Under the pieces are notes generated by a model. The model had not been told where the DNA came from, did not search any database, and saw only the letters and a list, made by a program, of their open reading frames with translations. A stretch of DNA of 47,009 nt. Origin: Candidatus Rokuibacteriota bacterium (GTDB lineage Bacteria; Methylomirabilota; Methylomirabilia; Rokubacteriales; DASRDR01). Positions 1,817 to 17,083 of this stretch are shown here, in pieces. The stretch covers positions 1 through 47,009 of the forward strand of contig JBIOTN010000078.1 of assembly GCA_044866005.1 (NCBI GenBank), read 5' to 3'. Every line of letters begins with the position of its first letter. Within the stretch, counting starts at the first letter, position 1. Made by a program: the position numbers and the translations under genes.

Positions 1817-1842
1817 GGAATAAGCCGGCTCGCCGCGGTGTT
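1817..1842 (+). promoter_or_regulatory. ECF (SigR/SigH-type) promoter GGAAT-N18-GTT
   Basis: GGAAT at 1817-1821 and GTT at 1840-1842, upstream of the RBS and ATG at 1866. Confidence 0.7.
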
Positions 1843-1865
1843 GCCCTGGTTGCCGGAGGGCGGCG

Positions 1866-2612
1866 ATGCTGGCGGCGCTCGACAGCGGGGTCAGCAGCTT
1901 GCGACGGCGAGCGGCACGAGGGGCGACCGGCGCCTCGCCGGAGAGCGAGGTCGCGTTCCGGACCGGCGTCGCGAGCGAGATCACCGGGATCAGCCAAGAC
2001 CGCCTCCAGGGCTGGCACCAGCGGGGCCTGCTCGCCCCGTCGGTGGCCGGCCCCGAGGTCCGGCCGCCACGCCAGGGCGTCGCCGGCCGGCGACCCGGCT
2101 CCGCCGGCCGGCGGTACAGCCTCGATGACCTGTTCCTCGCCCTGGTGATCCGGGAGCTCCTCGCCTCGAGCGTGCGCGTCGAGCGGGTGCGACTCGCGGT
2201 CGAGGCGCTCAAGGCTGCCTGCCCCGACCGCCCGCTGCGCCAGGCCCTGCGGGGCACGCGGCTGTGGCTCGTCGTGCCGCGAAGCGGCGCAGTCCGGCTG
2301 ATGGCCCGCCCGGGCGCCTCGAACGGGGGCGAGGATCGGCCGCAGGCGGTCGTGGCGCTTTCCCGCACGGCGCGAGCAGGGCGAGAGCTCTGGCTCGAAT
2401 GGCAGCGCCGGCGTCGCACACGGGCCGGCGACCGCGCCGGCCGTCGCCGGCGCGCCCGCGAGTCGGACCTGGAAGCTCAGCGCCTGCCGGCGGAACCCGA
2501 ATGGGCCGGGAACTCGCGCCGCCCTAGGTGCGCACCGAGGCCGCCTGCGTTCCACACTCCCGGTACGGAAACCGCCGGCTCTGCTTCGCCCGCGCCTCGA
2601 CCATCGCCGTGA
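1866..2612 (+). CDS. MerR-family HTH transcriptional regulator-like protein
   Basis: FRTGVASEITGISQDRLQGWHQRGLLAPS...RRYSLDDL matches a MerR HTH. The low-complexity tail overlaps the convergent gene, so the 3' end is uncertain. Confidence 0.65.
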   Translation: MLAALDSGVSSLRRRAARGATGASPESEVAFRTGVASEITGISQDRLQGWHQRGLLAPSVAGPEVRPPRQGVAGRRPGSAGRRYSLDDLFLALVIRELLASSVRVERVRLAVEALKAACPDRPLRQALRGTRLWLVVPRSGAVRLMARPGASNGGEDRPQAVVALSRTARAGRELWLEWQRRRRTRAGDRAGRRRRARESDLEAQRLPAEPEWAGNSRRPRCAPRPPAFHTPGTETAGSASPAPRPSP

Positions 2613-3045
2613 GCTGCCCCGCGTGCTCGCGCATGAAGCGGCGGAGGAACGGCCGCACGAGCAGCATGCCGACCAGCCAGCCGAACGTCCCTCCGCGGAG
2701 GCCGAACGTGCTCTCGTACCGAAAGCGCGTGCACCCGCCAACGTCCTCGAGGAGGAACCGGTCCCGCGCGAGGGCGAGCGGGCTCTCCACCGCCTCGAAG
2801 TCGATGCGCTCCGGCTCGTGGCGCGTGACCCAGTCCACTGACCGGTAGACCTGGCGCCGGCCCGTCACCGACCGGGTCACGGTGTGGAACTCGACGAGCA
2901 TCCGTCCGGCCTCCTCGCGCAGGACGCGGGACGATCCGCCGTCCGGCTGCCTGGCGCCGAAGGCTGTCAGCACCTGAAAGGCGAGGCGACGATCGGCATG
3001 GATGTGAACCTCGACCGGCTCCATGCGGATCGGGATGATCGCCAT
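2524..3045 (-). CDS. SRPBCC/START-like domain protein
   Basis: 173 aa with VHIHADRRLAFQVL, EPERIDF, GCTRFRYES and a C-terminal helix typical of SRPBCC. Directly downstream of the AhpD-like gene. Confidence 0.65.
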   Translation of the reverse strand: MAIIPIRMEPVEVHIHADRRLAFQVLTAFGARQPDGGSSRVLREEAGRMLVEFHTVTRSVTGRRQVYRSVDWVTRHEPERIDFEAVESPLALARDRFLLEDVGGCTRFRYESTFGLRGGTFGWLVGMLLVRPFLRRFMREHAGQLTAMVEARAKQSRRFPYRECGTQAASVRT

Positions 3046-3089
3046 GCGGCCGCGCGGTCAGGCGCCGGGACGTCCGAGACGCTCGCCTG

Positions 3090-3668
3090 TCACTCGGGGA
3101 CGCCGGGGAAGGTGGTTTTTGGCAGGGTCGCGTACTCGGGGTTCAGCTCGACCCCCAGCGCGTCGGCCACCCGCGTGATGAAGTTGAAGTAGCCGATGAT
3201 GCCGACCGCGTCCACGATCGCCTCGTCCGCGAAGCCCGCGGCCCGGAGCGCCCGGATGTCGGCTTCGCGGCACTCCCATTGCTGCGTGGTGAGCTTCCAC
3301 CCGAAATCGAGGAGCGCGCGCGTCCGACCGTCCACCGGCGCCGCCCGGTAGTCCCGCCCGATCGCGTCGGCGAGCGCCGGATCCCCCGTTTCAGCGCGAA
3401 GCCACGCCGAGTGGGCCTCGATTCAGTAGTGGCAGCGGTTGGCCGTCGAGACGACCAGCGCGAGCATCTCCCGCTGCGCGCGACCGAGCTCCGAGGGTCC
3501 GAACATCAGGGTCGTGAAGAGGCTCGTCGCCGACCGCGTCAGCTCGGGCCGGATGGTCGTGCTCTTGATGATGTTCGGGATCCAGCCTCGCTGGTTGAGG
3601 AGTCCCTCGTAGAGGCTCTTGACGTACCCGTCGGCCTGGGACTCTTCGACGGTCCTCACCCACGCCAT
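3090..3668 (-). CDS. AhpD/carboxymuconolactone-decarboxylase-like peroxidase-related protein, putative selenoprotein (CHYU, Sec82)
   Basis: ORFs 3423..3668 and 3090..3335 are in one frame, joined across TGA 3423-3425: REMLALVVSTANRCHY-U-IEAH...FNFITRVADALG. The TGA occupies the second Cys of the family CxYC motif. GGAGG RBS; downstream hairpin. Confidence 0.88.
3391..3410 (-). promoter_or_regulatory. SECIS-like hairpin
   Basis: TCGGCGTG-GCTT-CGCGCTGA: 8 bp including two GU pairs. The loop starts with G, 20 nt after the UGA. Confidence 0.6.
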
Positions 3669-3774
3669 CGAACGCCTCCTCCATCGGCGCGGCCCCGGGG
3701 TCGCCGCCCTCGGCGCCACGCCGTCCGGCGGCGGACTCGCAGCCGGCGGCACGCCGCTCTCGCCCTCAGGCTAC

Positions 3775-3800
3775 AACACGCGGGCGCGCCGCGACATTCC
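3775..3800 (-). promoter_or_regulatory. ECF promoter GGAAT-N18-GTT
   Basis: Minus strand GGAAT at 3800-3796 and GTT at 3777-3775, upstream of the AhpD-like selenoprotein gene. Confidence 0.72.
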
Positions 3801-3818
3801 CCGGCCGCGGCCCGGCGG

Positions 3819-4763
3819 CTACCGGGACGGCTCGGTCGGCGGAGGCCCGCTCGGCGCGGCGGGCGCAGCCTGCAGCTCCCGGCGGAGCCGGGCGATCGTG
3901 TCCTGCTCGAATTCCTGGAGGGATTGACCGAACGCGCGGCGGAAGTTCCCGAACCGGTCGTCGGAGGTCCGGAACATCCCGAAGTATCCGACCAGCGCGG
4001 GAAGCCCGTGGCGGCGGATCAGCTCGGCGGTCATGAGGAACGCCAGCCGGTAGGTCAAGCCGTCCCCCGTCTGCAGGTGGCGCGCCTCCCAGCCGCGGGG
4101 CCGCCCGAGGTCCACGAGGTCCAGCGGGACGGCGTCCAGGCGGCTGAGGTCCTCGCCGACGGCTCGCATCGCCGCCTCACGCTCGTCGCTGAGACGCGTC
4201 TGGCCGAGCCGCTCGAGCACCTGGCAGGCGACCCAGTCGGCCAGGCCCTCGCGCAGCCACTGCTCCGAGCTGCCGCGCCGCCCGGCGGACAGCTCGTACT
4301 GCGCGACGTGGGTCAGCTCGTGGGCCAGCACGACGAGCCAGGCGTGCGGGCGCCCCCGCCGCAAGGCGCCGTCGTTCAGGAACAGATGTCCCGCCTGGCC
4401 CAGACCGACCGAGTAGGCGGCGATCTCCGACGCCCGCCGGGCCGGCATCTGCCCCACTCCACGAAGCCCCGCGGCGTAGGCGGCGCGATCGGGATAGACG
4501 AATACCGTGAACTCGGCCGGCAGCGGAAGCCCGAGGTCGCCGATGATGATGGCCGAGATCGCCTCGATGGCGGCGTCGTAAGTCGTCGGCGGTTCGGCGG
4601 AGCGCGCGGGCGCGACGCTGTCGGGGGCGAGGCGGACGTGCAGGACCAGGCTCCGCCCGGCGCAGCCGGCGAGGAGAACGGCGACGAGCCCGAAAGCAGC
4701 GGCGCGCCCGCCCCGCCGTCCTCGGGGCATCGCCGCGCGGAAGCTCCCGACGTCCGTCCCCAC
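3819..4763 (-). CDS. Putative lipoprotein with zinc-metallopeptidase motif (peptidase MA-like)
   Basis: Lipobox LAGC, LAHELTHV (HExxH) and WLREGLAD. The start could be 4730. Confidence 0.72.
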   Translation of the reverse strand: MGTDVGSFRAAMPRGRRGGRAAAFGLVAVLLAGCAGRSLVLHVRLAPDSVAPARSAEPPTTYDAAIEAISAIIIGDLGLPLPAEFTVFVYPDRAAYAAGLRGVGQMPARRASEIAAYSVGLGQAGHLFLNDGALRRGRPHAWLVVLAHELTHVAQYELSAGRRGSSEQWLREGLADWVACQVLERLGQTRLSDEREAAMRAVGEDLSRLDAVPLDLVDLGRPRGWEARHLQTGDGLTYRLAFLMTAELIRRHGLPALVGYFGMFRTSDDRFGNFRRAFGQSLQEFEQDTIARLRRELQAAPAAPSGPPPTEPSR

Positions 4764-4945
4764 TCGCCCTCCCCCGATTGCCGCGTCGCCCCGAGGTGCC
4801 GCCCTTCAGGCCGTGGGGCGCCGCCGGGACGGCTACGGTTGTACCCGCTCGCCTCGCCGGGGTCCAGAGAAATCTCGGGCGGCGCAGCGCTCGTGAAGAT
4901 CGGCTCGAGCGGTGGGGAGGTCAGGCGCGAGGGGCGACACCGCGG

Positions 4946-5761
4946 TCAGGGCGCGGGCGGTCCGGCGCAGCGGAAGCCGATCAGGACGTGCCGGCTCTCT
5001 GCCGGCCGGCCATGGCGGAACGCGGGCCGGCAGAGGCCGGGCTCGTCGTCCCAGCCGCAGCCCTTGAGGACGCGCCGGCCGTCGGCGAGCGCCGAGGCGG
5101 TCCACTGGAAGACGTTGCCGACGGCGTCGAGGAGGCCGTAGGGGCTCGCGCCGGTCGGGTACCGGGTGACGGGAGTGGTCGCGCTCGGCCCGCGCGCCTC
5201 GCTGTTGAGCCGGTCGGGGTCCCAGCCATTGCCCCAGGGAAAGAGGTGCCCGTCGTCGCCCCGCGCCGCCTTCTCCCACTCGGCCTCCGAGGGCAGGCGC
5301 ACGGTCGGGTGGCGGGCACGGCAGAAGGCTGCCGCATCCGCCGCGCTCACGAGCACGACGGGGTGGTCGCCGAGACCCGCCGGCGGGTGGCCGTCGCGCC
5401 AGAGGTACCGCGTCACGACCCGGTCGTAGTCGTGCACGAGGAAGCCCTGGCGCCGGTAGTCCTCGCGGCTGATCCCCGGGGCGCGGTGGCCCGTCCGGGC
5501 CACGAACCGCTCGTACTCGGCCTGGGTGACCAGGTGACGATCGATGCAGAAAGCCGGCAGGCTCTCCTGCCGGCGGGGCAGCTCGGCGTCGAACCAGCGG
5601 GCCTCGCGCACGGCCGCGCTCGAGAGCGCGGCGGCCATGGCTCGCTCGGCCTGGTCGCTCCCCATCCAGAACGGGCCCGCCGGAACGAGCACCATGCGCT
5701 CCGCGTCGGCACACACCGCGCCGGCGGCGACGAGGGCGCCGAGGAACAGGCTACCGATCAC
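4946..5761 (-). CDS. FGE-sulfatase (SUMF1/EgtB/PvdO-like) domain protein, exported
   Basis: Signal peptide, VPAGPFWMGS, HPVVLVS, RLPSEAEWEKAARG, FPWG, SPYGLLDAVGNVFQW, IGFRC. Confidence 0.88.
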   Translation of the reverse strand: MIGSLFLGALVAAGAVCADAERMVLVPAGPFWMGSDQAERAMAAALSSAAVREARWFDAELPRRQESLPAFCIDRHLVTQAEYERFVARTGHRAPGISREDYRRQGFLVHDYDRVVTRYLWRDGHPPAGLGDHPVVLVSAADAAAFCRARHPTVRLPSEAEWEKAARGDDGHLFPWGNGWDPDRLNSEARGPSATTPVTRYPTGASPYGLLDAVGNVFQWTASALADGRRVLKGCGWDDEPGLCRPAFRHGRPAESRHVLIGFRCAGPPAP

Positions 5762-5767
5762 GGCCCG

Positions 5768-6765
5768 TCATCGTCCCCGGCGCGCCGGCAGCCGCCAGCG
5801 CACGGTCGGGGCTTTGAGCGCGAGCGTCGCGCCGGCGGCCATGGCGGCCGTCGCGACGGCGCTGTTGACGGACAGGATCGAAAGCCCGGTGAGGGCGTTG
5901 CCGACGTTGCAGCCGGCCGCCAGCGTGCCCCCGATGCCCATCAAGAGCCCGCCGGCAGCGCGGCGGCAGAGCTCGGAGGCGGGCGGGACCCGCCACCGAA
6001 CGCCTCCCTGGGGGCGCGCGCTCACGAACGTGCCGAGCGGCACCCGACCAGCATCGCCGTTCCCCAGGAGAGAGGCGCCACGGTGCGTCCCAGCACAGCC
6101 TCGACAAGCGAGCGGCTGGGGCCGGTCATCGACAGCCCCCAGGCCCACCCGGCAGCGGCTCCGGTCAACCAGGCGAGAACCCCGGCGGCGCCGAGGACCA
6201 CGCCCGTGGCCGACCACGGCCAGGCGCCCGGCTCGCGCGGCACAGGCGGCAGGCGCCGGAAGAGGGCAGCGATCGCGAGAATCGCCGCGGCAACGACCAG
6301 CCAGGCCGGCACGTCGAGGAGGGCGTCGAGCGACGGCGCGAGCGGGGGCCGCGACCGGGCCTCGCCGAGCCAGCCGGCGAGCGAGAGGAGCGGCCCCCGG
6401 ACTGTGAACAGGCCACCCAGGCCGAAGGCGAGGGCAGCCACGGTCGCGCCGACGCTTCCGGTCCCGGCCCGGGACCAGACCGACGTGGCTCACCCCTTGG
6501 CGAGGATCATACCCACGCCGAAGACGGCCCCGCCCACCGCCGCGCCGAGCACCGCGACGGGCGGCACGGGGACGCGGAGGAGCCCCCAGGCGGCCAGTCC
6601 ATTGACGGTGCCGAGCTGGAGGGCGAGCGCCAGAAGGTAGGCGCGCCCGGAGGGCCCGGCGTGGCCCGCGAGCGCCTCGCGAAAGGCCGAATGCATGCAG
6701 AAGTCCCCCCGATGCAGGGCAACCCCGAGGCCGAGGCCGACCAAAAGCGCAGCCGCCATCCACAT
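5768..6765 (-). CDS. YeeE/YedE-family sulfur-compound transporter, putative selenoprotein (Sec92), with one frameshift near 6044
   Basis: Motifs: HRGDFC, GGAVFGVGMILAKG-TGA(6490-6492)-ATS, and GGLLMGIGGTLAAGCNVG. Segments 6490..6765 and 6022..6441 share a frame. The C-terminus continues in another frame after GTCGGGTGCCG (one G missing). GAGGAGG RBS. Confidence 0.8.
6457..6479 (-). promoter_or_regulatory. SECIS-like hairpin
   Basis: TCTGGTCCCG-GGC-CGGGACCGGA: 10 bp with one GU pair. The loop starts with G, 20 nt after the UGA. Confidence 0.62.
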
Positions 6766-6776
6766 CTACCTCCTCG

Positions 6777-6802
6777 AACCCGCCGCGTGCCCGCGTCATT
6801 CC
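6777..6802 (-). promoter_or_regulatory. ECF promoter GGAAT-N18-GTT
   Basis: Minus strand GGAAT at 6802-6798 and GTT at 6779-6777, just upstream of the YeeE start. It would give a very short leader. Confidence 0.62.
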
Positions 6803-6819
6803 GCCGAGAAAGACCCACT

Positions 6820-6844
6820 GGAATAAACGGCGCCGGGCCGGGTT
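6820..6844 (+). promoter_or_regulatory. ECF promoter variant GGAAT-N17-GTT
   Basis: GGAATA at 6820 and GGGTT ending at 6844. Divergent from the YeeE promoter, upstream of the Cys-repeat peptide. Confidence 0.58.
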
Positions 6845-6882
6845 CTGGGTAGCAGCGGAGTGTGCTCCGCGGAAAGGGGGTG

Positions 6883-7107
6883 ATGCCCGTGGTGCGACGC
6901 GTGATCGGCACCGTCTCCGCGGCCGCGCTCCTGGCGCTGGGCGGCGGGGTGGCCGCGCAGCAGGCGAACCCGTGCGCCGCCAAGAACCCCTGTGCCGTGA
7001 AGGCCGGGAACCCGTGCGCCGCGAAGAACCCCTGCGCCGCGAAAAACCCCTGTGCGGCCAAGAACCCCTGCGCCGCCAAGAACCCCTGCGCGCCGAAGAC
7101 CCAGTAG
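6883..7107 (+). CDS. Small secreted Cys-rich peptide with seven NPCAAK-type repeats
   Basis: RBS AAAGGGGG; signal peptide ending VAA-QQ. The mature part is almost entirely NPCA(A/V/P)K. The start may be 6883, 6889 or 6892. Confidence 0.85.
   Translation: MPVVRRVIGTVSAAALLALGGGVAAQQANPCAAKNPCAVKAGNPCAAKNPCAAKNPCAAKNPCAAKNPCAPKTQ
6967..7098 (+). repeat. 18-nt coding tandem repeat (7 units, one 6-nt insertion)
   Basis: Units of AACCCSTGYGCSGCSAAR; variation is mostly synonymous third-position changes. Confidence 0.9.
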
Positions 7108-7117
7108 GGTGGGACCC

Positions 7118-7150
7118 CCGGGGCTGTCCCCCACCCCGGGACAGCCCCGG
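7118..7150 (+). terminator. Perfect 13-bp hairpin after the peptide gene (terminator or mRNA stabiliser, no U-tract)
   Basis: CCGGGGCTGTCCC-CCACCCC-GGGACAGCCCCGG. Confidence 0.55.
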
Positions 7151-7231
7151 AGGCGGGCGGCGGGCTGGACGGGGGTACACTCGGAACGACCGGCACGGGA
7201 TCGCGAGGTCCCGCCCCGGAACGCTTCAGGC

Positions 7232-7257
7232 GGAATAACCACGTGCCATTGCGGGTT
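7232..7257 (+). promoter_or_regulatory. ECF autoregulatory promoter GGAAT-N18-GTT
   Basis: GGAAT at 7232-7236 and GTT at 7255-7257, directly upstream of the sigma factor gene. Confidence 0.78.
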
Positions 7258-7280
7258 TACGATCTGAGCATCGCGGAAAG

Positions 7281-7868
7281 GTGCCGGTGATCGGCTGGAT
7301 GGCGGGGGACGACCGGGTCCGGGAGTTCGAGGAGACGGTGCTCGTCCACCTCGATGCCCTCTACCGAGTCGGGCTCCGGTTGACCCAGAACCGGGCCGAA
7401 GCCGAAGATGTGGCGCAGGAGACGTGCCTCCGGGCCTTCCGGAGCTTCCACCGCTTCAACGCGGGGACGAACTGTCGGGCCTGGCTCTTCACGATCCTGC
7501 GTAACGTCTTCCTGAACCGGCTGCGGCGGGCGGGGCGCGAGGCCGTCCCGACCGACCCGGCCGTGTGGGAGTCGGTGGGAGCAGAGAGCGTGACGGCGAT
7601 GACACCGGTCGCGGACAATCCCGAGGAGGAGTTCTTCCAGACGGTGCTCCACGGCGACGTGGATCGGGCCCTGAAGGGGTTGCCGCTCGTCTTCCGCGAG
7701 GCCGTGATCCTGGCCGACCTGGAAGGGCTCAGCTACAAGGAAATGAGCGAGGCCCTGGGCTGCCCGATCGGGACGGTGATGTCGCGGCTGTTCAGGGGAC
7801 GCAACCTCCTTCGTCACGCGCTCGCCCGGTACGCCCGCGAGCACGGATACATCAAGGGACCGGAATGA
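7281..7868 (+). CDS. ECF RNA polymerase sigma factor (SigR/SigH-like)
   Basis: AEDVAQETCLRAFRSFHRFNAGTNCRAWLFTILRN (region 2) and LEGLSYKEMSEALGCPIGTVMSRLFRGR (region 4). Alternative start at 7299. Confidence 0.93.
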   Translation: MPVIGWMAGDDRVREFEETVLVHLDALYRVGLRLTQNRAEAEDVAQETCLRAFRSFHRFNAGTNCRAWLFTILRNVFLNRLRRAGREAVPTDPAVWESVGAESVTAMTPVADNPEEEFFQTVLHGDVDRALKGLPLVFREAVILADLEGLSYKEMSEALGCPIGTVMSRLFRGRNLLRHALARYAREHGYIKGPE

Positions 7869-8647
7869 CCTGCGAAGAGTTTCGGGCGCGCCTGTCCCCG
7901 TACGCCGACGGCGAGGTCGGCGTCGACGAGACCCTCGCCGCGGACGCGCACGCCGCGCGGTGCGGCCGCTGCGAGGCCCTCGTCGCGCGCGAACGGCAGT
8001 TCCGCCAGCTCCTGCGGCGTCAGCCGCGGGAGTCGGCGCGCCCGGAGCTTCGCGCCCGGATCCTCGCGGAGTGCCGCCGGGAGGTGCGTCGGGCGCGGCT
8101 CCGACCCTGGCTCTGGGCCCCGCCCCTCGCGGCCGCGGCGGCCCTGGCGGTCGCGGCGCTCCTGCCGGCGACGCGCCCGGCCCCGCCTGTCGTCGGGCAG
8201 CTCGTGGCCGTTCACCTCGCGTACGCGGAGCTCGAGCGCCCGGCGGAGTTCGCCTCGACCGATCGCGCCGAGGTCGAAGAGTGGTTCCATCAGCGCGCGC
8301 GGCTTCGCGTCATCGTGCCGGACTACTCGTCGGCGGGGATCCGCCTGGTCGGCGGGCGCATCGCCGAGGTCCGCGAGCGGCGCGCCGCGTATCTCCTCTA
8401 CGAGAAGGGGCACACGCTCCTGTCGGTCTTCATGCTGCCCGTCCCGGCCGGTGACCTGCGCCTCACCGGCACGCGCAGGAGCTCCGGGGGGTTTGAGTAC
8501 TACACCGAGGAGCGGAACGGGCTCCGCACCGTCTCCTGGACGGAGGGAGAGTCGCTCTTCGGGCTCGTGTCCATGCTGGACTACGACGCCCTCTTCGAGT
8601 GCGCGGACCGGCTGCGCGCCGAGCGGGCAAGCCAACGTCCACTCTAG
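7865..8647 (+). CDS. Zinc-finger (zf-HC2/ZAS) transmembrane anti-sigma factor
   Basis: ATGA overlap with the sigma gene. MTCEE...HAARCGRC (HxxxCxxC), a TM helix and an extracytoplasmic domain. Confidence 0.9.
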   Translation: MTCEEFRARLSPYADGEVGVDETLAADAHAARCGRCEALVARERQFRQLLRRQPRESARPELRARILAECRREVRRARLRPWLWAPPLAAAAALAVAALLPATRPAPPVVGQLVAVHLAYAELERPAEFASTDRAEVEEWFHQRARLRVIVPDYSSAGIRLVGGRIAEVRERRAAYLLYEKGHTLLSVFMLPVPAGDLRLTGTRRSSGGFEYYTEERNGLRTVSWTEGESLFGLVSMLDYDALFECADRLRAERASQRPL

Positions 8648-8657
8648 GCGCCGCGCC

Positions 8658-9764
8658 GTGCGACTCCGCGTCCCCGCTCTCACGGTGGCGGCCGCCGGGC
8701 TGGCGCTCGGGATCGCCTGGGCCTGGGCCGGGCCGGTCACGCTCCGGACGGACGCGAGCAAGGCGCTCGTCCCGCTGGACGAGATCATCTCGGGCGGCCC
8801 GCCGCCCGACGGCATCCCCGCGATCGACCGGCCGGCCTTCGTGAGCCCGGCGGAGGCCGCGGGCTGGCTCACGCCGCAGGAGCCCGTCCTGGCCGTCGAG
8901 ATCGGCGGGGACGCCCGCGCCTACCCGCTCCAGATCCTGATGTGGCACGAGATCGTCAACGACACGGTGGGCGGGCGGCCCGTCGCGGTCACCTACTGCC
9001 CCCTCTGCAACTCCGGCCTGGCGTTCGATCGCGTCGTGGACGGGACCCCGTTCGACTTCGGGACCTCCGGGAAGCTCTACAAGAGCGACCTCGTCATGTA
9101 CGACCGCCAGACGCACTCCCTCTGGGCGCAGATGGAGGGGCGCGCCATCGTCGGGGAGCGCGCGGGCAGTCGCCTCGCCCGGATCCCCGCGAACACGATC
9201 GCCTTCGCCGAATGGCGGGCCGCCCACCCGCGGGGCAAGGTCCTCTCCCGGGAGACCGGGCACCGCCGGGCCTACGGCGCCAACCCGTACACCTCGTACG
9301 ACCAGCCGACGCTCCAGCCCTTCCTCTTCGACGGCCGGCCGGACCCGCGGCGCCCGCCGAAGGAGCGGGTCGTCGGGCTCACGCTCGGCGGACAGCCGCG
9401 CGCCTACCCGTGGCCCGTCCTGGAGCAGGCGCGCGTCGTCCACGATCAGGTCGGCGGCGAGCGCGTCGTGATCTTCTACCAGCCGGGCACGCTCTCGGCC
9501 CTCGACGGGTCGCGGATCGCGGAGTCGCGGGCCATCGGCGCGACGGCTGCCTTCAGCCCCGTGCTCGACGGCCGGGCGCTGACCTTCGAGCCCGCGCATG
9601 ACGGCTTCCGCGACCGGGAGACGGGGAGCCTCTGGAACCTCCTGGGCCACGCGGCCAAGGGACCGCTCGCCGGCAAGCGCCTGCGTCCCGTGCCCCACGT
9701 CGACGCCTTCTGGTTCGCCTGGGCCGCGTTCAACCCGACCACCACGATCCACGGGACGCCGTGA
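8658..9764 (+). CDS. DUF3179 domain protein, exported
   Basis: SGGPPPDGIPAID, RAYPLQILMWHEIVND, VTYCPLCNSG, FGTSGKLYKSDLVMYDRQT, FWFAW. Confidence 0.88.
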   Translation: MRLRVPALTVAAAGLALGIAWAWAGPVTLRTDASKALVPLDEIISGGPPPDGIPAIDRPAFVSPAEAAGWLTPQEPVLAVEIGGDARAYPLQILMWHEIVNDTVGGRPVAVTYCPLCNSGLAFDRVVDGTPFDFGTSGKLYKSDLVMYDRQTHSLWAQMEGRAIVGERAGSRLARIPANTIAFAEWRAAHPRGKVLSRETGHRRAYGANPYTSYDQPTLQPFLFDGRPDPRRPPKERVVGLTLGGQPRAYPWPVLEQARVVHDQVGGERVVIFYQPGTLSALDGSRIAESRAIGATAAFSPVLDGRALTFEPAHDGFRDRETGSLWNLLGHAAKGPLAGKRLRPVPHVDAFWFAWAAFNPTTTIHGTP

Positions 9765-10363
9765 CGGCCGCCGAGGAGCTCGTCTCCCTGCTCGAAGGGC
9801 TCGAACGCGCCGGCAGCTCGGTGATGGCGCTCGTTCGCGGGGGCCGGCCCGGGGTCCCGTGGACCCTCTACCCGAACGAGTGGGGGATCTTCGACCGCCG
9901 GACGCGCTGCCAGTTCTACTACCACGCCCACGCGGGCGCGGAGCACGAGGACGGCCACTTCCACATGGTCCGCCTCTTCCCGGACCACACCGTCCACGTG
10001 GCCGCGGTCTCGATGGCGCCGAGCGGCTGGCCCCGCGCGCTCTTCACCGTGAACCTCTGGGCGATCGGCGACGCGTACGCGCCTGCGGACGAGCTCAAGC
10101 GGCACGCGCGCCAGTTCCGGCTGTTCCGGGCGCGCGGCGACGCGCGTGTGGTCCGCTTCGTCAACCTCCTCTTCCGCGCCTTCCTCCCCGAGATCGAGTG
10201 GCTCCAGGACGAGAAGGAGCGGACGCTCGCCGCCTACCGCGCCGCGCACCCGGACGCCGACCCGTTCCAGGACCGCTCGCTCGAGGTCCTGAGCCAGATC
10301 GCGCTCGACGTCCGCGAGCGCCGCGAGGCGGGGGTGGCGGCCGTGCCGGGCCTCAGGGCATGA
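9761..10363 (+). CDS. His-motif hypothetical protein (DUF6969-like)
   Basis: GTGA overlap; QFYYHAH...EHEDGHFH...LFTVNLW. Confidence 0.72.
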   Translation: MTAAEELVSLLEGLERAGSSVMALVRGGRPGVPWTLYPNEWGIFDRRTRCQFYYHAHAGAEHEDGHFHMVRLFPDHTVHVAAVSMAPSGWPRALFTVNLWAIGDAYAPADELKRHARQFRLFRARGDARVVRFVNLLFRAFLPEIEWLQDEKERTLAAYRAAHPDADPFQDRSLEVLSQIALDVRERREAGVAAVPGLRA

Positions 10364-10935
10364 GACGCGCCGTCGTCCGGCTCCTGCTCGCCGCTGCCCT
10401 CGCCCTGGGCGGCCTTGCGGCCGCGGGCGCCGGGACGCCGGGGACCGGGCCGGCGCCCGAGCTGTGGCGCGCGGCGGGCGTCACGCGGATGGCCCGGGGC
10501 GTCGCGGCACGACCGTTCGTGCTGCCGGACCTCCGGGGCACGCCCGTTCGCCTCCAGGACTTGCGCGGGCGCGTCGTCCTGCTCTACTTCTGGGCCACCT
10601 GGTGACCGCACTGCGCGAGGGAGTTACCCTCGATCGACGCGCTGGCCCGTGAGCTCGGCGGCCGTGGCCTCACCGTCCTCCTGATCGATCTGTACGAGGA
10701 CAGAGACACCGTCGCGGCGGCCGTGGCCCAGCGGGGCTACACCGTGCCCGTCCTCCTGGACCGCGACGGGCAGGCCGCCGACGCCTTCGGCGTCCACGCC
10801 ACGCCGACGGTCTTCCTGATCGGACGCGACCGCATGATCCTCGGGAGCGCGATCGGACCCCGATCCTGGGACCGTCCGGAAGCGCGCGCGCTGCTCACGG
10901 CGCTCCTCGAGGCCACGCCGGTCCCGGCCCGCTGA
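10360..10935 (+). CDS. TlpA/ResA-like thiol:disulfide redoxin, putative selenoprotein (WUPHC, Sec82)
   Basis: ATGA overlap; signal peptide. FVLPDLRG...GRVVLLYFWATW-TGA(10603-10605)-PHCARELP...FGVHATPTVFLI continues in frame to 10935. Confidence 0.9.
10616..10632 (+). promoter_or_regulatory. SECIS-like hairpin
   Basis: CGAGGG-AGTTA-CCCTCG; loop 16 nt after the UGA. It includes a TTA codon, rare in such GC-rich DNA. Confidence 0.62.
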
Positions 10936-10994
10936 GAGCCGCGGCGGAGCCCGGCGGTCCAGAGAGCCGCTCGCGTGGCGTCCGCCGCCATCCT

Positions 10995-11861
10995 TCAGAC
11001 CGCCAGGAGGATGACGCCGACGACGATCAGGCTCGCGCCGGTCAGGCGCTGCGGCCGGTTCGGCTCGCCGAGGGTCACCACGCCGAGCAATGTCCCGAAG
11101 ACGATCCCGAGCTCCCGAGCGGGCGCCACGTAGCTGACCGGGGCCAGGCGAAGCGCGAACAGCACGAGGACGTAGCCCGACGTCATCAACAGCGCGACCG
11201 CCGGGATCGCCAGGCGGTTCGCGCGCCACTCTGCGGCGATCGCCCCGGGTCGCCGCGCGGCGGCCGGCGTGAGCAGGAGCGCGGCGACCGGGATCGTGAG
11301 GTAGGCGTAGAGGAGCGGGTCGGCCCCGCGCGTCACGTTCCACTTGTCCACGACCGAGTACGTCGCGGTGATGAGGCCCGTGAGCGCGGCGGGGCGGGCG
11401 TGGGGCAGGCGGAGGGCCCGGAACGGCGCGAGGAGGTCGGCGGTGGCGAGGCCCGGCAGGTGCAGGACGTAGACGCCCAGGGCGACGGCGCCGATCCCGA
11501 GCGCGCCCACGGCCGACGGCCGCTCGCCCAGGAGGAGGATCGCGACCGGCGGCACGAGCACCGGCGCCATGCCTCGGGCCAGCGGGTAGACGAGCGAGAG
11601 GTCGCCTCGCGCGTAGGCGGCGCCGAGGGCGCCGAAGTACGCGGCCCGCAGGGTCGCCGCCAGCGCGATCCCCGCCCAGAGCCCGGCCTCGCCGGGCCAG
11701 GCCGGGCGCCACCAGACGAGGGCGGGCAGGAAGAGCAGCGAGCCCGCCAGGCCCGTCCACCAGAGGAAGAGCGGCTTGTCCCGGCTCGCCTTCGTCAGGA
11801 GGTTCCAGACCGCGTGGAAGACGGCGGACGTCGTGACGAGGAGGAGGGCGAGGCCGGTCAC
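10995..11861 (-). CDS. EamA/DMT-family transporter
   Basis: SAVFHAVWNLLTK, GDLSLVYPLARG, VAPARELGIVFG...LGE; about 10 TM segments. Confidence 0.88.
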   Translation of the reverse strand: MTGLALLLVTTSAVFHAVWNLLTKASRDKPLFLWWTGLAGSLLFLPALVWWRPAWPGEAGLWAGIALAATLRAAYFGALGAAYARGDLSLVYPLARGMAPVLVPPVAILLLGERPSAVGALGIGAVALGVYVLHLPGLATADLLAPFRALRLPHARPAALTGLITATYSVVDKWNVTRGADPLLYAYLTIPVAALLLTPAAARRPGAIAAEWRANRLAIPAVALLMTSGYVLVLFALRLAPVSYVAPARELGIVFGTLLGVVTLGEPNRPQRLTGASLIVVGVILLAV

Positions 11862-11918
11862 GGCTCGCCGGCCGGCGGGCGAGCCGCCTCGGCCCCGGCC
11901 GCCGCGCGCCCGCGCGCC

Positions 11919-12443
11919 TCAGTGCTCGAGCTCGGTCCCCAGGGCTTCGTTGACGCGGTTGGTGAAGTTGGCGGCCGCGACGCTCAGCGTGAGCTGCACG
12001 AGGGCCTCCGGTGACAGATGGCGCTGGAGCGCCTCGACCAGCGCGGGATCCACCTGCACCTTCCGCGTCATCTCCTCGGCGTACCGGAGAACGAGCCGCT
12101 CGAGCTCGGAGAAGAGCGGGCTGGTCGCGTAATCCGAGAGCGCGTCGAGCTTCTCTTTGGGGACCCCGACCCTCTGCCCGAGGGCCGCGTTGTGGGTCGC
12201 TCAGTAACGGCAGCCGTTGAGCTGCGAGGCCTTCACGTACGCGAGCTGGCGGAGCTTGATGTCGAGCGCGCCCTCCCGGAGCGTCGGGTACCACTGGAGG
12301 AACGGCGGCAGGGAGCGCGCGTGGTGCGCCATCAGCTTGAAGAAGTTCCCGACGCGCCCCGTGGCCTTCTGCAGGCCGTCGTATGCCGCCTGGACCTCGG
12401 GGGGCGCCTGGTCGCGCTCCACGTAGGGAAGCCTCGCCGCCAT
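11919..12443 (-). CDS. Second AhpD/CMD-family protein, putative selenoprotein (CRYU, Sec81)
   Basis: LRQLAYVKASQLNGCRY-TGA(12201-12203)-ATH...FSELERLVLRYAEEMT...ANFTNRVNEALGTELEH-stop. The C-terminal half is absent from the ORF track. AAGGAG RBS. Confidence 0.88.
12167..12187 (-). promoter_or_regulatory. SECIS-like hairpin
   Basis: CGGCCCTC-GGGCA-GAGGGTCG: 8 bp, G-rich loop 21 nt after the UGA. Confidence 0.62.
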
Positions 12444-12556
12444 CGCTCTCTACTCCTTTGCCGTCGCCGCGGCTCCATCATGCGGCAACAGCCGGGTGAC
12501 CGTCCAGCGCGTCCCGCGGCGCGCCGCCGGCTGCGCACGGCGCCGCGTAGCGTGCG

Positions 12557-13219
12557 CTAGCGGCCGAGGGCCGCGGCGAGCGCGGTCAGGTCCGGCACCG
12601 TGAGGTCCGGCGTCAGCCCGAGCCCGTCGAGCGGCGCCTTCCCGCGGTTGACCCAGACGACCGGGAAGCCGTACGCTTTCGCGCCGATGACGTCCCAGCC
12701 GTTGGACGAGACGAACCCGATCGCCTCCTTGGGGAGGCCGAGTCGCGCGGGCCCCAGCGCGTAGACCTCCGGGGCCGGCTTGAACCGGCGGACCGCGTCC
12801 ACGCTGATGACGGCCGTGAGGAGGCTTCCGAGACCGGCGTGCGCCACGACGGCGTCGAGCATCTTCGGCGCGCCGTTCGAGAGGATGGCGCAGGGGATGC
12901 CCCGGAGGCGCTCCAGCACCGCGCGCACCTCGGGATACGGGTCCAGGCGCAGGTAGGCGTCCATGAGGCGGGCGCGCTGGGCCGCGCCGACCTCGAGTCC
13001 CAGGCGGCGGCACGCGAAGTCGAGCGCCGCCTCGGTGACGGTCCAGAAGTCCTCGTAGCGCCCCATGAGCGTGCGGAGCCACGTGTACTCGAGCTGCTTC
13101 GCGCGCCAGACGTTGGAGAGCGCCGCGGGATCGCTGGTGACCGCGCGGCCGGCCTCGATGACCGAGTGGACGTCGAAGAGCGTGCCGTAGGCGTCGAACA
13201 GGAGCCCCTTGACCTGCAT
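12557..13219 (-). CDS. Haloacid dehalogenase type II
   Basis: FDAYGTLFD, WRAKQLEYTW, LSNG, KPAPEVY, VSSNGWD. AGGAGG RBS before ATG 13219. Confidence 0.92.
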   Translation of the reverse strand: MQVKGLLFDAYGTLFDVHSVIEAGRAVTSDPAALSNVWRAKQLEYTWLRTLMGRYEDFWTVTEAALDFACRRLGLEVGAAQRARLMDAYLRLDPYPEVRAVLERLRGIPCAILSNGAPKMLDAVVAHAGLGSLLTAVISVDAVRRFKPAPEVYALGPARLGLPKEAIGFVSSNGWDVIGAKAYGFPVVWVNRGKAPLDGLGLTPDLTVPDLTALAAALGR

Positions 13220-13249
13220 CGCGCGCACCTCCTGGGGGCCGGCGTCGGC

Positions 13250-13278
13250 TTGCCAGCTCCGGGTCGAACCCGTACAAT
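13250..13278 (+). promoter_or_regulatory. Sigma70-type promoter TTGCCA-N17-TACAAT
   Basis: Near-consensus hexamers with a 17-nt spacer, ending 9 nt before GTG 13288 (near-leaderless). Confidence 0.65.
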
Positions 13279-13287
13279 GAGCGCGCC

Positions 13288-13521
13288 GTGGCGCGGACGG
13301 TCACCTACAAAGGCCACCAGATCCGGGCGCACGCCGTCCTGGTCCCCGACTCCGACGAAGGGGACTGGGCCGCGCAGGCGGTGGTCCGAGTCCCCGTCCC
13401 GGGCGGCGGGCGCGAGCAACGGCTTCCGGACCCCGACGACCGCATCTTCGCCACGCAGGAAGACGCCGAAGGCTACGCCGTCCACCTGGCGATGCGGTGG
13501 GTCGACCGGCACGGCCTGTGA
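13288..13521 (+). CDS. Small hypothetical protein
   Basis: 77 aa, GC3-biased codons, promoter immediately upstream, GTGA coupling to the next gene. Confidence 0.7.
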   Translation: MARTVTYKGHQIRAHAVLVPDSDEGDWAAQAVVRVPVPGGGREQRLPDPDDRIFATQEDAEGYAVHLAMRWVDRHGL

Positions 13522-13856
13522 CGCCGCGCCGGGCGCTCGGCTGCCTCGGGGCGCTCGGGCTCGCCGCCTGCGCGAGCTTCGCGCCCTTGCGCCAGCCCCC
13601 GCTCGCGCCATCGGCGGACCCGACCGCCGGCGTCAGCACGCGCGCCGACGCGATCGCGCGATTCGGTCCCCCGGACGAAGTGCGCGCCTCGGACCTCGGC
13701 GAGGTGCTGGTCTACCGCCGGCGCGTCGTCGTGGACGCCAACCCGAACCGCTTCTACGGCATCGATCGGGGCGCGCGGTTCGACCGGTACGAGCGTCTGT
13801 TCCTCTACCTGGACGCCGACGGCCGCATCGTCCGCTGGACGGCCGAGCCGGAGTAA
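13518..13856 (+). CDS. Hypothetical lipoprotein
   Basis: Lipobox LAAC; TRADAIARFGPPD resembles small SmpA/OmlA-like lipoproteins. Confidence 0.65.
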   Translation: MTPRRALGCLGALGLAACASFAPLRQPPLAPSADPTAGVSTRADAIARFGPPDEVRASDLGEVLVYRRRVVVDANPNRFYGIDRGARFDRYERLFLYLDADGRIVRWTAEPE

Positions 13857-14036
13857 TGTAGCGCGACCGAGCGGTGCGCCGTCAACCGGAATCGCGCTGT
13901 CATCGCGCCCGCCATCCTGGTCGCCGCCGACCCCGGTGATCGCCATCGTGGCGCGGCGGTGACCGCCGCCTCGCGGACGGACGGCACCCACCGCACGGCG
14001 CGAGCTCACCGCTCGTCGCCTCCAGGTGCGAGCCCG

Positions 14037-14062
14037 GGAATATTCCCATCGGGCTCGGGGTT
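14037..14062 (+). promoter_or_regulatory. ECF promoter GGAAT-N18-GTT
   Basis: GGAAT at 14037-14041 and GTT at 14060-14062, in an AT-rich patch upstream of doxX-merF-grx. Confidence 0.72.
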
Positions 14063-14181
14063 TTATCTTTACAAACCCGAGCCGGCGCGGAGCCATCGGA
14101 CGAGGCTCGCCGCGCGCAGCCGCTCGCCGCCCGGGGCGCGGACGGCCGGTGGGGATGTCGGCTCGCGTTGTGGAGGCCCCG

Positions 14182-14700
14182 ATGAGCGGGAATGTCGTTG
14201 GCCTGGACGCGCGCGTTCCGGGGTGGCCGCTGGCCCTGTTCCGGATCGCCTTTGGGATCCTCTACCTCGACATGGCCCTGCAAAAGGCGCCATGGAAGAA
14301 CTACGGCTGGCTCGGCGGGTTCATCGAGCAAGAGATCGCCCATCCCGCCGTTCCGTCGGTCGCGGCCTTCCTCAAGGCGGTCGTGCTCCCGAACCTCGCG
14401 GTGTTCGGGATGGTGACGTTCCTCGTCGAGATCGCTCTGGGCGCGGCGCTCCTGCTCGGCGTCCTGACGCGCCTGGTCGGGATCGCCGGGTTCGCCTGGC
14501 AGCTCAACATCGCCCTCCAAGCCTACGCCGTCCCTGGCGAGTGGTACTGGGTCTGGCCGCTCCTGGCGCTGCCCCAGCTGTGCTTCGCCTTCGGGGATGC
14601 CGGCCAGATCCTCGGAGTCGACCGCTGGCTTCAGCCTTGGCTCCGCGAGCGCGCCCACCAGGGCGCCAGCTGGGCCGGCCTCCTCGCGCGTGCGACCTGA
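14182..14700 (+). CDS. DoxX/DoxD-like membrane protein
   Basis: GGAGG RBS; LALFRIAFGILYL...K, EIALGAALLLGVLTR, LGVDRWL. Confidence 0.82.
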   Translation: MSGNVVGLDARVPGWPLALFRIAFGILYLDMALQKAPWKNYGWLGGFIEQEIAHPAVPSVAAFLKAVVLPNLAVFGMVTFLVEIALGAALLLGVLTRLVGIAGFAWQLNIALQAYAVPGEWYWVWPLLALPQLCFAFGDAGQILGVDRWLQPWLRERAHQGASWAGLLARAT

Positions 14701-14752: not shown

Positions 14753-14995
14753 ATGGACGCATCGAAGTGGTTTCGAATCGGCACCCTGGGAACGATCGTG
14801 GCCGCGATCTGCTGCTCGACCCCCATCCTGGCGCTGGTCCTCGGGGCCCTGGGGCTGAGCGCCTGGTTGAGCTCGGCCGACTACGTGCTGATTCCGACCC
14901 TCCTCGCGTTCGCGGGGCTCACCGGGTATGCCGCCTACCGCATGCGCCGGGAACGCCGGCAACGCCGGCCGGAAGCGTCGGCAGGTGAGCCGTGA
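14753..14995 (+). CDS. merF: MerF-like mercury/heavy-metal transport protein
   Basis: IGTLGTIVAAICCSTPILALVLGALGLSAW...DYVLIP matches the MerF pattern (vicinal CC in TM1). Confidence 0.78.
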   Translation: MDASKWFRIGTLGTIVAAICCSTPILALVLGALGLSAWLSSADYVLIPTLLAFAGLTGYAAYRMRRERRQRRPEASAGEP

Positions 14996-15219
14996 AACAG
15001 GTGGTCGTCTACTCGCAGCCCGGCTGACTCTTCTGCGGCAAGCTGAAAGAGTTTCTTTCAGCCAAGGGCGTGCCGTACGTGGAGCGGGACATCTCGGCCG
15101 ACCCGCAAGCGCTCGCCGAACTGTCGGAACTCGGCTACATGACGACGCCGGTCGCCAAGATCGACGGGGACGTGGTCGTCGGGTTCGACCGGCGGCGACT
15201 GGAGACGCTGCTCGCCTGA
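14992..15219 (+). CDS. Glutaredoxin/NrdH-like protein, putative selenoprotein (ULFC, Sec12); absent from the ORF track
   Basis: GTGA overlap with merF. Sequence: MKQVVVYSQPG-TGA(15025-15027)-LFCGKLKEFLSAKGVPYVERDISADPQALAELSELGYMTTPVAKIDGDVVVGFDRRRLETLLA. Confidence 0.9.
15042..15062 (+). promoter_or_regulatory. SECIS-like hairpin
   Basis: GCTGAAAGA-GTT-TCTTTCAGC: perfect 9 bp, loop 23 nt after the UGA, built from AT-rich codons. Confidence 0.75.
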
Positions 15220-15330: not shown

Positions 15331-16116
15331 CTAATGCCGCCCGCGTGCCCGCTCCTTGACCGGCAGGGATTCCAGACAGGAGGTCCACCATCCGGTGCGG
15401 ATCGTCTCCACGAACTCCGCCGGCAGCCCTTCGCGCTCCATCTCCCGGGCCAGCGTCTCGTGGTCGTAGTGGACGGGGATGAACTCGACGGCGAGGTCGG
15501 GCGTGGCCGTGAGCAGCGTGTACCAGACGGCCGGCGTCCCGTCTTTCTCCGGCCGGCCGATCACGCCGACGTTGACGGCGTGCCGGCCGCTCGGCAGCGG
15601 GCGGTGCCACGTGAGCCCGGTGTGCGTGACGCACAGGACGTCGGCCGCGTGGTCGTCACAGAACCGCTCGAGGAGGCCCGTCGGCGTCGTGGTCTCCCAG
15701 AGGAACTCGTTGATCCGGCGCGGGGAGCCGTGACAGAGCAGGAGCCGCCAGGGCCCGAGCACCAGCCGCGCTGCCGGCGGGAGCGCGCCGAGCCAGCGGC
15801 GGTGCTCGGTCGCCGTCCGCGCGAGCGTGTACCGGTACGAGATCCGGGCGAAGTGGTTGTCGCGCGGATCGGTGTAGCCGCAACCGCAGTCCGGCGCGCC
15901 CGCCGCGATCGCCTGATCGTAGTTCCCCTGCACGCACCTCACGCCGCCTGCGTGCAGCAGGGGGAAGACGCGATCGGGATGCGGACCAAACCCACCCAGG
16001 TCACCCAGACAGTAGACGGCTTCCGCGCCCCGCGCCCGGGCGTCGCCGAGCACGGCCTCGAGCGCGAGGTGGTTACTGTAGACCCCACCGAGGAGGGCCA
16101 CCCGCCGCGCCGTCAA
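15331..16116 (-). CDS. Metallophosphoesterase (calcineurin-like) family protein
   Basis: GGVYSNH, CLGDLGGFGP, QGNYD, CHGSP, THTG, NVGVIGRP. The TTG start overlaps the upstream stop. Confidence 0.85.
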   Translation of the reverse strand: MTARRVALLGGVYSNHLALEAVLGDARARGAEAVYCLGDLGGFGPHPDRVFPLLHAGGVRCVQGNYDQAIAAGAPDCGCGYTDPRDNHFARISYRYTLARTATEHRRWLGALPPAARLVLGPWRLLLCHGSPRRINEFLWETTTPTGLLERFCDDHAADVLCVTHTGLTWHRPLPSGRHAVNVGVIGRPEKDGTPAVWYTLLTATPDLAVEFIPVHYDHETLAREMEREGLPAEFVETIRTGWWTSCLESLPVKERARGRH

Positions 16117-16988: not shown

Positions 16989-17083
16989 CCCTGCCACCCG
17001 GATCCCGGGCCCGTGCGAACGATGTGCCGGGTCGGAGAGGACGGCGGGCCCTGGGCGGCGCCTCTACCAGGACCGGCGGTCCC

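Follow-up and report, generated by a model that had tools for sequence, protein, structure and literature searches.

Which regulator reads the motif GGAAT-N17/18-GTT, which recurs along part of a contig of an uncultured Candidatus Rokuibacteriota bacterium, and to what kind of stress would the genes behind it respond? The window studied here is positions 1-47,009 of this contig (JBIOTN010000078.1), and the motif copies lie on both sides of a gene pair for a sigma factor with extracytoplasmic function (ECF) and its predicted membrane-bound anti-sigma factor. The six motifs are very probably promoters of this local sigma factor (7287-7868), and comparison of sequences established both their tight clustering around the sigma gene and their co-occurrence with the gene pair across Methylomirabilota. 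Autoregulation of an ECF sigma factor with this consensus is well known; what is new is the lineage, the mixed type of the sigma/anti-sigma pair and the targets.

Occurrence of the motif in the window and the genome

A pattern scan of the whole window for GGAAT-N{17,19}-GTT gave exactly six matches and none beyond 14,062, and dinucleotide shuffles of the window gave a mean of 0.61 matches (standard deviation 0.69, maximum 2), with 0 of 100 shuffles reaching six. A sequence-only reading of this DNA had located the same six copies, had put the chance expectation under one per window and had noticed no copy beyond 14.1 kb, and the scan bears it out on these points. It had also described the copies as intergenic and sense-oriented upstream of genes; in agreement, all six score as non-coding in a coding/non-coding test and end 11-119 nt before a same-strand start codon. 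The putative promoter motifs, with scores from the matrix described below, are as follows.

1817-1842, +: N18, 23.0 bits, 23 nt before the start codon
3775-3800, -: N18, 19.1 bits, 106 nt before the start codon
6777-6802, -: N18, 11 nt before the YeeE ATG
6820-6844, +: N17, 22.4 bits, 38 nt before the start codon, back to back with 6802(-)
7232-7257, +: N18, putative autoregulatory copy, 25.2 bits, 29 nt before the sigma start codon
14037-14062, +: N18, 27.8 bits (the top score of the genome), 119 nt before the start codon, overlapping an inverted repeat
1752-1777, -: degenerate seventh candidate, GGAAGA-N16-TGTT, 17.3 bits, 62 nt ahead of the gene at 1689(-) and back to back with 1817

The gap of 11 nt at 6802(-), which is 9 nt in one relative (L020), implies a leaderless or nearly leaderless YeeE mRNA, judged from spacing.

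In the genome as a whole (4.67 Mb, 72.6% GC), the N18 form has 19 copies, where 15 control spacings average 11.2 each. Five of these 19 sites fall in a 12.2-kb part of the window (Poisson P about 2e-10 against the genome's own background) and three more sit on another contig, C175. The motif is not equally frequent inside genes across the genome: of the 18 N18 sites that were scored, 2 look coding-like, vs 99 of 166 with a control spacing, after removal of three sites at contig ends (one N18, two control).

Evidence on the sites as probable promoters of the local sigma factor

The two genes in question are:

7287-7868, +: ECF sigma factor, SigH/SigR-like in sequence, 193 aa; PF04542, PF08281 and TIGR02937 over cut-off
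7865-8647, +: anti-sigma factor, 260 aa, with zf-HC2 zinc domain, predicted membrane helix and outer domain

We assign the motifs to this sigma factor because of their fixed spacing, their non-coding upstream position, the autoregulatory copy, their clustering and their co-occurrence with the sigma/anti-sigma pair. Spacing was examined in 28 loci around anti-sigma orthologues of relatives (430 kb), where N18 occurs 95 times and every other spacing from 12 to 24 between 1 and 10 times. GGAAT is followed by A in 73 of these 95 sites and GTT is preceded by G or T in 87, and with the flanks included the consensus becomes GGAATA-N16-[G/T]GTT, the two positions after GGAATA not being conserved. A copy before the sigma gene, read from the window sequence as autoregulation, is kept in 26 of the 28 loci and ahead of all 16 orthologous sigma genes that were examined singly (at least 47% identity); no motif was found before three more distant sigma genes or before the genome's closest paralogue (C2). 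The relative loci further hold 24 back-to-back site pairs. Regions 2.4 and 4.2 of the sigma factor align closely with those of Mycobacterium tuberculosis SigH, for which PMC4803200 gives the consensus GGAAYR-N17-GTT.

Co-occurrence was counted in 182 genomes of the same order, with an anti-sigma match better than 1e-40 called an orthologue; 68 genomes of other orders, which have higher control counts, were left out. The strict form of the motif averages 4.97 sites per genome in the 37 genomes with an orthologue, 31 of which hold at least three, vs 0.80 in those without (11 of 145 holding at least three), while a reversed-pattern control gives 0.30 and 0.28, respectively. The strict pattern was chosen after some of these loci had been seen. 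Moreover, with a position weight matrix trained on the relatives only, the nine best sites of the genome are the six of the window and the three of C175, followed as the next distinct site by the degenerate 1777(-); the 3.2-bit penalty for N17 and N19 was our choice. The earlier proposal that the six copies define the regulon is thus not supported, as three equally good sites lie on C175 and the degenerate one comes in addition.

Several points weigh against this assignment. The genome-wide excess of N18 is small (19 vs about 11). Matrix and strict pattern were both built from sites with the same core, so that a core match is circular and only flanks, spacing and position are independent; related genomes are not independent samples, and the orthologue call scored only 10 candidates per genome, so that some orthologues may have been counted as absent. 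The coding test separates less in the relative loci (3 of 95 motif sites vs 10 of 57 controls), where the start-codon offset behind GTT, used as a proxy for the transcription start, has no sharp peak. Finally, two of the targets are doubtful in this genome, the MerR-like ORF being weakly supported and the YeeE gene carrying a frameshift.

A different reader of the sites, either another sigma factor of this genome or a regulator that uses them as operators and not as promoters, is highly improbable. The genome does encode six other ECF-like sigma factors, one of them 44% identical to the 7287 product and accompanied by a related anti-sigma factor, and the site at 14037 overlaps an inverted repeat. 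However, the presence of sites tracks the orthologue of the 7865 anti-sigma gene across genomes, a site precedes every orthologous sigma gene tested, the C2 paralogue has none, and a two-box, directional layout with fixed spacing is that of ECF promoters.

Relationship to the ECF12 and ECF26 groups

By sequence the sigma factor, which carries regions 2 and 4 only, is nearest to SigR-RsrA of Streptomyces coelicolor and SigH-RshA of mycobacteria (ECF12). Its best family match is SigH_actino (TIGR02947; 155.1 bits, below the cut-off of 251.55), its best solved relative is SigH (PDB, E 8e-37), and it is 43-45% identical to actinobacterial SigR/SigH vs 29-32% to four ECF26-like references. The anti-sigma gene, in position +1 with overlapping stop and start codons, encodes a zf-HC2 domain of the HxxxCxxC type in which C3, H29, C33 and C36 are invariant in 32 of 32 sequences and which resembles RsrA (92%). 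Autoregulation and thiol-redox targets are further likenesses to ECF12, as is the GGAAT-N18-GTT core, the published SigR consensus (PMC2375139, citing Paget et al.).

The remainder of the anti-sigma factor differs. A hydrophobic stretch at about residues 85-103 is predicted to be a membrane helix, with an outer domain beyond it in which H117 is invariant and C246 nearly so, whereas in 96% of the ECF12 group the zinc anti-sigma factor is soluble. Residues 121-251 of this outer domain match the anti-sigma factor of a Sinorhizobium meliloti locus (L160; hhalign 98.5%, E 1.8e-15), whose pair we take, from its neighbour genes only, to be RpoE1-EcfR1. Its fold matches the C-terminal domain of MucB/RseB (Z 9.5, root-mean-square deviation 3.4, 104 aligned) and TM1622 (Z 9.2), scores that barely exceed what chance usually gives and do not point to a function, and the N-terminal fold resembles the anti-sigma domains of MucA, RslA and RsiW (Z 6.8-6.9). 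The anti-sigma factor had 0 matches at E 1 among the sequences of solved structures and no NrsF match in a Pfam search, and atlas look-ups gave unnamed clusters and, for the outer domain, DUF3379 in seventh place.

A cytoplasmic disulfide-stress regulon of the SigR/SigH type, in which the zinc anti-sigma factor would be oxidised in the cytoplasm and cytoplasmic thiols would be restored, is also to be weighed, and we consider it improbable. The motif, the best family, the best solved relative and the RsrA-like zinc domain with its four invariant residues all fit it, and membrane anti-sigma factors are described for subgroup ECF12s19 (PMC7826278). On the other side stand the sub-cut-off family score, the membrane helix and outer domain without an RsrA counterpart, and targets that are largely exported. 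Thioredoxin and Clp genes, moreover, are typical of SigR regulons (PMC7826278), whereas here no site lies within 600 nt of trxB, two trxA genes or clpP, positions further up an operon lying outside the scan; the best matrix scores of these genes are -2.7 to 4.1 bits vs 18-28 for real sites. The proposed regulon also departs from ECF12 in its size of about ten units and in their clustering close to the sigma gene. Trees of 34 and 21 rows group the Methylomirabilota sigma factors together (support 91/87 and 93/87) and reject neither union, that with SigR/SigH having p-AU 0.22 and that with ECF26 0.099, or 0.48 with two paralogues included.

The ECF26 group (RpoE1/RpoE4-EcfR of S. meliloti, SigE of Starkeya, PrtI of Pseudomonas) shares the consensus GGAATAAA / GTT (supplement of PMC7826278; PMC6180224), autoregulation, a small local regulon, a one-helix zinc-finger anti-sigma factor with a homologous outer domain, and sulfur-related neighbours. 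It differs in being described as 99.87% Proteobacteria and in the low identity to the four references given above, and no sulfite-oxidising enzyme was seen among the targets here. Thus the motif does equal the SigR consensus, as first noted, but the SigR-type system which this implied is not supported: the label 'SigR' is misleading because the consensus fits ECF26 equally, the outer domain of the membrane-anchored anti-sigma factor is of ECF26 type, and trxA, trxB and clpP are without a site. On these sequence features the system behaves as an envelope sensor of the ECF26 type that has a SigR-like promoter specificity, with membership of neither group established.

Genes led by the motif

The genes of the motif span and its edges, besides the sigma and anti-sigma genes, are:

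651-1148, - and 1180-1689, -: two paralogous proteins of unassigned function, about 40% identical, with three further genome copies and no Pfam or NCBIfam family
1866-2612, +: MerR-like helix-turn-helix open reading frame (ORF), weak (PF13411, MerR_1, E 4e-6)
2524-3045, -: SRPBCC/polyketide-cyclase-like protein (PF10604 E 7e-6, below cut-off)
3090-3668, -: AhpD-like peroxidase-related protein, CxxU, in-frame TGA at codon 82 (TIGR01926 147 bits, over cut-off)
3819-4763, -: putative lipoprotein with an HExxH motif found by sequence, no Pfam or NCBIfam family, in 3 of 28 relative loci
4946-5761, -: FGE-sulfatase-domain protein (PF03781 E 8e-42)
5768-6765, -: YeeE/YedE sulfur-transport protein, in-frame TGA (G-U-A-T-S), frameshift near 6043-6046 (PF04143 in pieces)
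6883-7107, +: secreted peptide with signal-peptide-like N-terminus and seven NPC(AAK) units, no Pfam or NCBIfam family
8658-9764, +: DUF3179 exported protein (CPLC), in 20 of 28 relative loci
9761-10363, +: DUF6969 protein, in 11 of 28 relative loci
10360-10935, +: TlpA/ResA-like exported redoxin, UxxC, by family match, with the TGA kept in relatives
11919-12443, -: second AhpD/CMD-like protein, CxxU, by family match
14182-14700, +: DoxX/DoxD membrane protein (PF04173, PF07681)
14753-14995, +: MerF metal transporter (NF033565 84 bits, over cut-off)
14992-15219, +: glutaredoxin-like protein, UxxC (Pfam and NCBIfam search)

With unit limits inferred from gene overlaps and short gaps, the six sites lead the MerR-like ORF; the AhpD-like selenoprotein candidate, with which the SRPBCC gene is probably co-transcribed; YeeE, the FGE-sulfatase and the HExxH lipoprotein; the NPCAAK peptide; the run from sigma and anti-sigma through DUF3179 and DUF6969 to the TlpA-like redoxin; and DoxX, MerF and the glutaredoxin. 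The matrix scan found no motif before the AhpD/CMD-like gene 11919-12443(-). Neither the 28 relative loci nor the rest of the genome holds a homologue of the MerR-like ORF, whose codon bias fades toward the 3' end. The YeeE frameshift may be either an assembly error or a recent inactivation, and the lipoprotein is, from its motif, a possible periplasmic peptidase of the system. A strong hairpin (7108-7160) directly follows the NPCAAK peptide gene.

On contig C175, the genes behind the three sites are those for a second NPCAAK peptide and for a DcaP-like porin, plus a gene run comprising a carboxypeptidase-regulatory-domain protein, a BNR-repeat protein, a mono-haem cytochrome with an in-frame TGA, a two-domain cytochrome c, a TlpA-like redoxin with U, an NPC-armed protein, a multihaem cytochrome and DUF302. 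Of the 12 relatives with the C175 cytochrome, 4 (G231, G194, G242, G073) carry its gene on the contig of the anti-sigma gene and no more than 14 kb away; therefore the window and C175 blocks probably form one regulon. After the sigma gene itself, the commonest motif-led first genes of the 28 relative loci encode NPCAAK-type small secreted proteins, a multihaem cytochrome, YeeE and DUF302, and 46 of 71 motif-led non-sigma genes start with a hydrophobic stretch by a crude test. Judged by sequence, the targets are mostly exported or thiol-redox proteins.

An NPCAAK match is present in 28 of 37 genomes with an anti-sigma orthologue vs 12 of 145 without, and 13 of 21 stand-alone NPCAAK genes in phylum loci have a site within 200 nt. 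The family is wider, with 278 homologues that include Nitrosomonas, Pseudomonas and cyanobacteria, and its units are often fused to SoxA/TsdA-like or P460 cytochromes. NPCAAK was not found as a term in the literature searched, most subscription papers lying outside it, nor did that literature yield anything on this system; the main text of PMC12452194 has neither 'NPC' nor 'CAAK', and 'NPC' does not occur in the accessible text of PMC11626156. The peptide matched no bufferin precursor family and neither block holds an MNIO gene. The only MNIO (PF05114) match of the genome, C21:24947-25435, is 30% identical to BufB and unlinked to the motif. In two relatives, G165 and G149, neither of which gave an NPCAAK match, a complete bufferin cluster (DUF2282-MNIO-DUF2063-DoxX; MNIO_BufB 356 bits, over cut-off) stands directly behind the motif, divergent from the sigma gene (L069:11289-13729 and L070:7606-9569). 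This recalls Caulobacter, where bufferins are copper-induced via SigF (PMC11626156): in SigF-NrsF (ECF16), too, an ECF sigma factor with a membrane anti-sigma factor drives secreted cysteine-rich peptides. The two systems differ in the anti-sigma family and in the secreted peptide, which in this genome is NPCAAK without a linked MNIO.

The same promoters and sigma factor might serve periplasmic sulfur oxidation and not metal defence, through a sulfite/thiosulfate response like that of S. meliloti RpoE1/RpoE4 (ECF26), which respond to sulfite (PMC3511301). We regard this as a tentative alternative, well below an even chance. YeeE, the DoxD-like protein, the FGE-sulfatase, DUF302 and the multihaem and SoxA/TsdA-like cytochromes are sulfur-type targets and speak for it together with the homology of the outer domain to the presumed EcfR1. 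However, neither the motif-led first genes nor the recurrent clusters of the relative loci include a sulfite-oxidising enzyme, the promoters of sulfite enzymes have a -10 CGTC and not KGTT (PMC6527743), RpoE3 and RpoE6 are not sulfite-induced (PMC3511301), and MerF and the bufferins point to metals.

Selenoproteins

Four of the six window promoters lead units with a TGA-containing gene. The genome has selA, selB, selD and tRNA-Sec, all over cut-off, for selenocysteine (Sec, U), and in five window genes a TGA stands at the catalytic Cys position with homology on both sides and is kept in relatives (for YeeE, in 3 of 3 copies). Hairpins are predicted after all five, at 73% GC and with no shuffle control. 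All five belong to catalogued selenoprotein families (AhpD-like, CMD-like, glutaredoxin, redoxin UxxC, YeeE GUxSG; PMC13188914, Table 1); shared control of such families by one ECF sigma factor was not found in the literature searched, with the same scope as above.

A selenoprotein-specific regulon was considered and rejected, as TGA is common in the same families genome-wide: in 5 of 6 CMD proteins (3 of 4 outside the window) and in 12 of 28 AhpC-TSA proteins (10 of 26 outside the two blocks). Already on record is a count of 63 selenoprotein genes for one genome of the Methylomirabilota (PMC13188914). A codon-model selenoprotein scan of the genome was too noisy (85 candidates, 1 of 5 window genes recovered) and was discarded.

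The exported mono-haem cytochrome c of the C175 block (L001:13184-13687(-), equal to G000:C175:73183-73686, where G000 is this genome) has its in-frame TGA at residue 116. The TGA is kept in 13 of 13 full-length matches from 13 genomes, with a conserved hairpin after it, and aligns with the invariant Cys of NPC-armed SoxA/TsdA-like cytochromes, a residue which we take to be a haem ligand in SoxA/TsdA. We regard this cytochrome as a candidate uncatalogued selenoprotein, possibly with Sec as haem ligand. Its structure model is poor (pLDDT 53), and a search against PDB sequences gave nothing significant. It is not among the cytochromes of the selenoprotein review, whose three mentions of 'cytochrome' concern multihaem proteins (PMC13188914), although the source behind the genome with 63 such genes may include it.

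Proposed mechanism and inducing signal

In our model, GGAATA would be the -35 and [G/T]GTT the -10 element read by the sigma factor. At rest, by analogy with other ECF systems, the co-translated zinc anti-sigma factor would hold the sigma factor at the membrane. Stress outside the cytoplasm, sensed by the outer domain (candidate residues H117 and C246), or else oxidation of the zinc site, would release the sigma factor, which would then amplify itself and turn on about ten transcription units in the window and C175 blocks. From the content of the targets, the response would protect envelope thiols: Sec redoxins and AhpD-type enzymes would re-reduce or detoxify, the secreted poly-cysteine NPCAAK peptides would be thiol or metal sinks, and YeeE, DoxX, MerF and the c-type cytochromes would move sulfur species, metal or electrons. 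We thus infer that the genes behind the motifs form a compact and conserved set with which this group of uncultured bacteria handles thiol-reactive stress in its cell envelope.

Some points about the payload count on the other side. In metagenome loci outside the phylum searches, a site accompanies only 7 of 25 stand-alone NPCAAK genes, and therefore the peptide is not always under motif control; the bufferin linkage is confined to 2 of 28 relative loci; and metal binding by the peptides is a prediction.

As to the inducing signal, by our own apportioning a thiophilic metal such as Cu or Hg has the largest share, slightly short of even, because of MerF and of bufferin targets, which are copper-induced in Caulobacter. 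Reactive sulfur species come next at a distinctly smaller share, because YeeE, DoxD-like, FGE and cytochrome genes are among the targets, and general oxidation follows a little behind. A bolder version, which we hold to be rather unlikely as a whole, is that an unclassified ECF group between ECF12 and ECF26 acts as an envelope metal/thiol switch of Methylomirabilota with periplasmic Cys/His sensing; unmodified NPCAAK peptides would be its default effectors, in a bufferin role without a modifying enzyme and swapped for bufferins in some lineages, and a mono-haem cytochrome c with Sec as its second haem ligand would belong to the regulon.

Through the motif, genes that have not been studied, from a lineage that is abundant but uncultured, come together as a single testable response, and it gives a regulatory context to widespread unnamed NPCAAK peptides, for which bufferins are an apparent alternative payload. 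Moreover, natural promoters together with their sigma and anti-sigma factors offer a handle on what ECF26-type outer domains sense, a mechanism called hypothetical in PMC6180224.

Other features of the two blocks and the relative loci

Within 14030-14090 of the window, the -35 box of the last site lies inside a perfect 12-bp palindrome, and one arm of an 11-bp inverted repeat contains its -10 box; these repeats could be the operator of a second regulator before the DoxX-MerF-glutaredoxin genes. In the C175 block, a relaxed site at C175:68936(-), GGAATAAA..TGTC (15.7 bits), stands back to back with the NPCAAK promoter, and about 240 nt behind it is a flavoprotein disulfide reductase with CxxxxU (L001:7336-8673(-)), which may belong to the regulon. 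The same block encodes a secreted protein (L001:11176-11748(-)) in which NPCAAK arms flank a small domain without a Pfam match, with similar forms in L114, L117 and L129.

Small ORFs of 58-106 aa with a hydrophobic N-terminus and a C-terminal Cys occur behind the motif in relatives (L021:18673-18903 and L020:1290-1568, with similar ones in L017, L056, L061, L066 and L019). Two that were tested had no Pfam or NCBIfam match, and in L017, L020 and L021 the stop is TGA, a possible C-U terminus.

Close homologues carry the labels Candidatus Methylomirabilota and Candidatus Rokubacteria. A radical SAM and metallophosphoesterase pair (window 15331-16997(-)) lies a short way beyond the motif span; homologues occur in 5 of the 28 relative loci, and a homologous radical SAM gene in L066 is motif-led.

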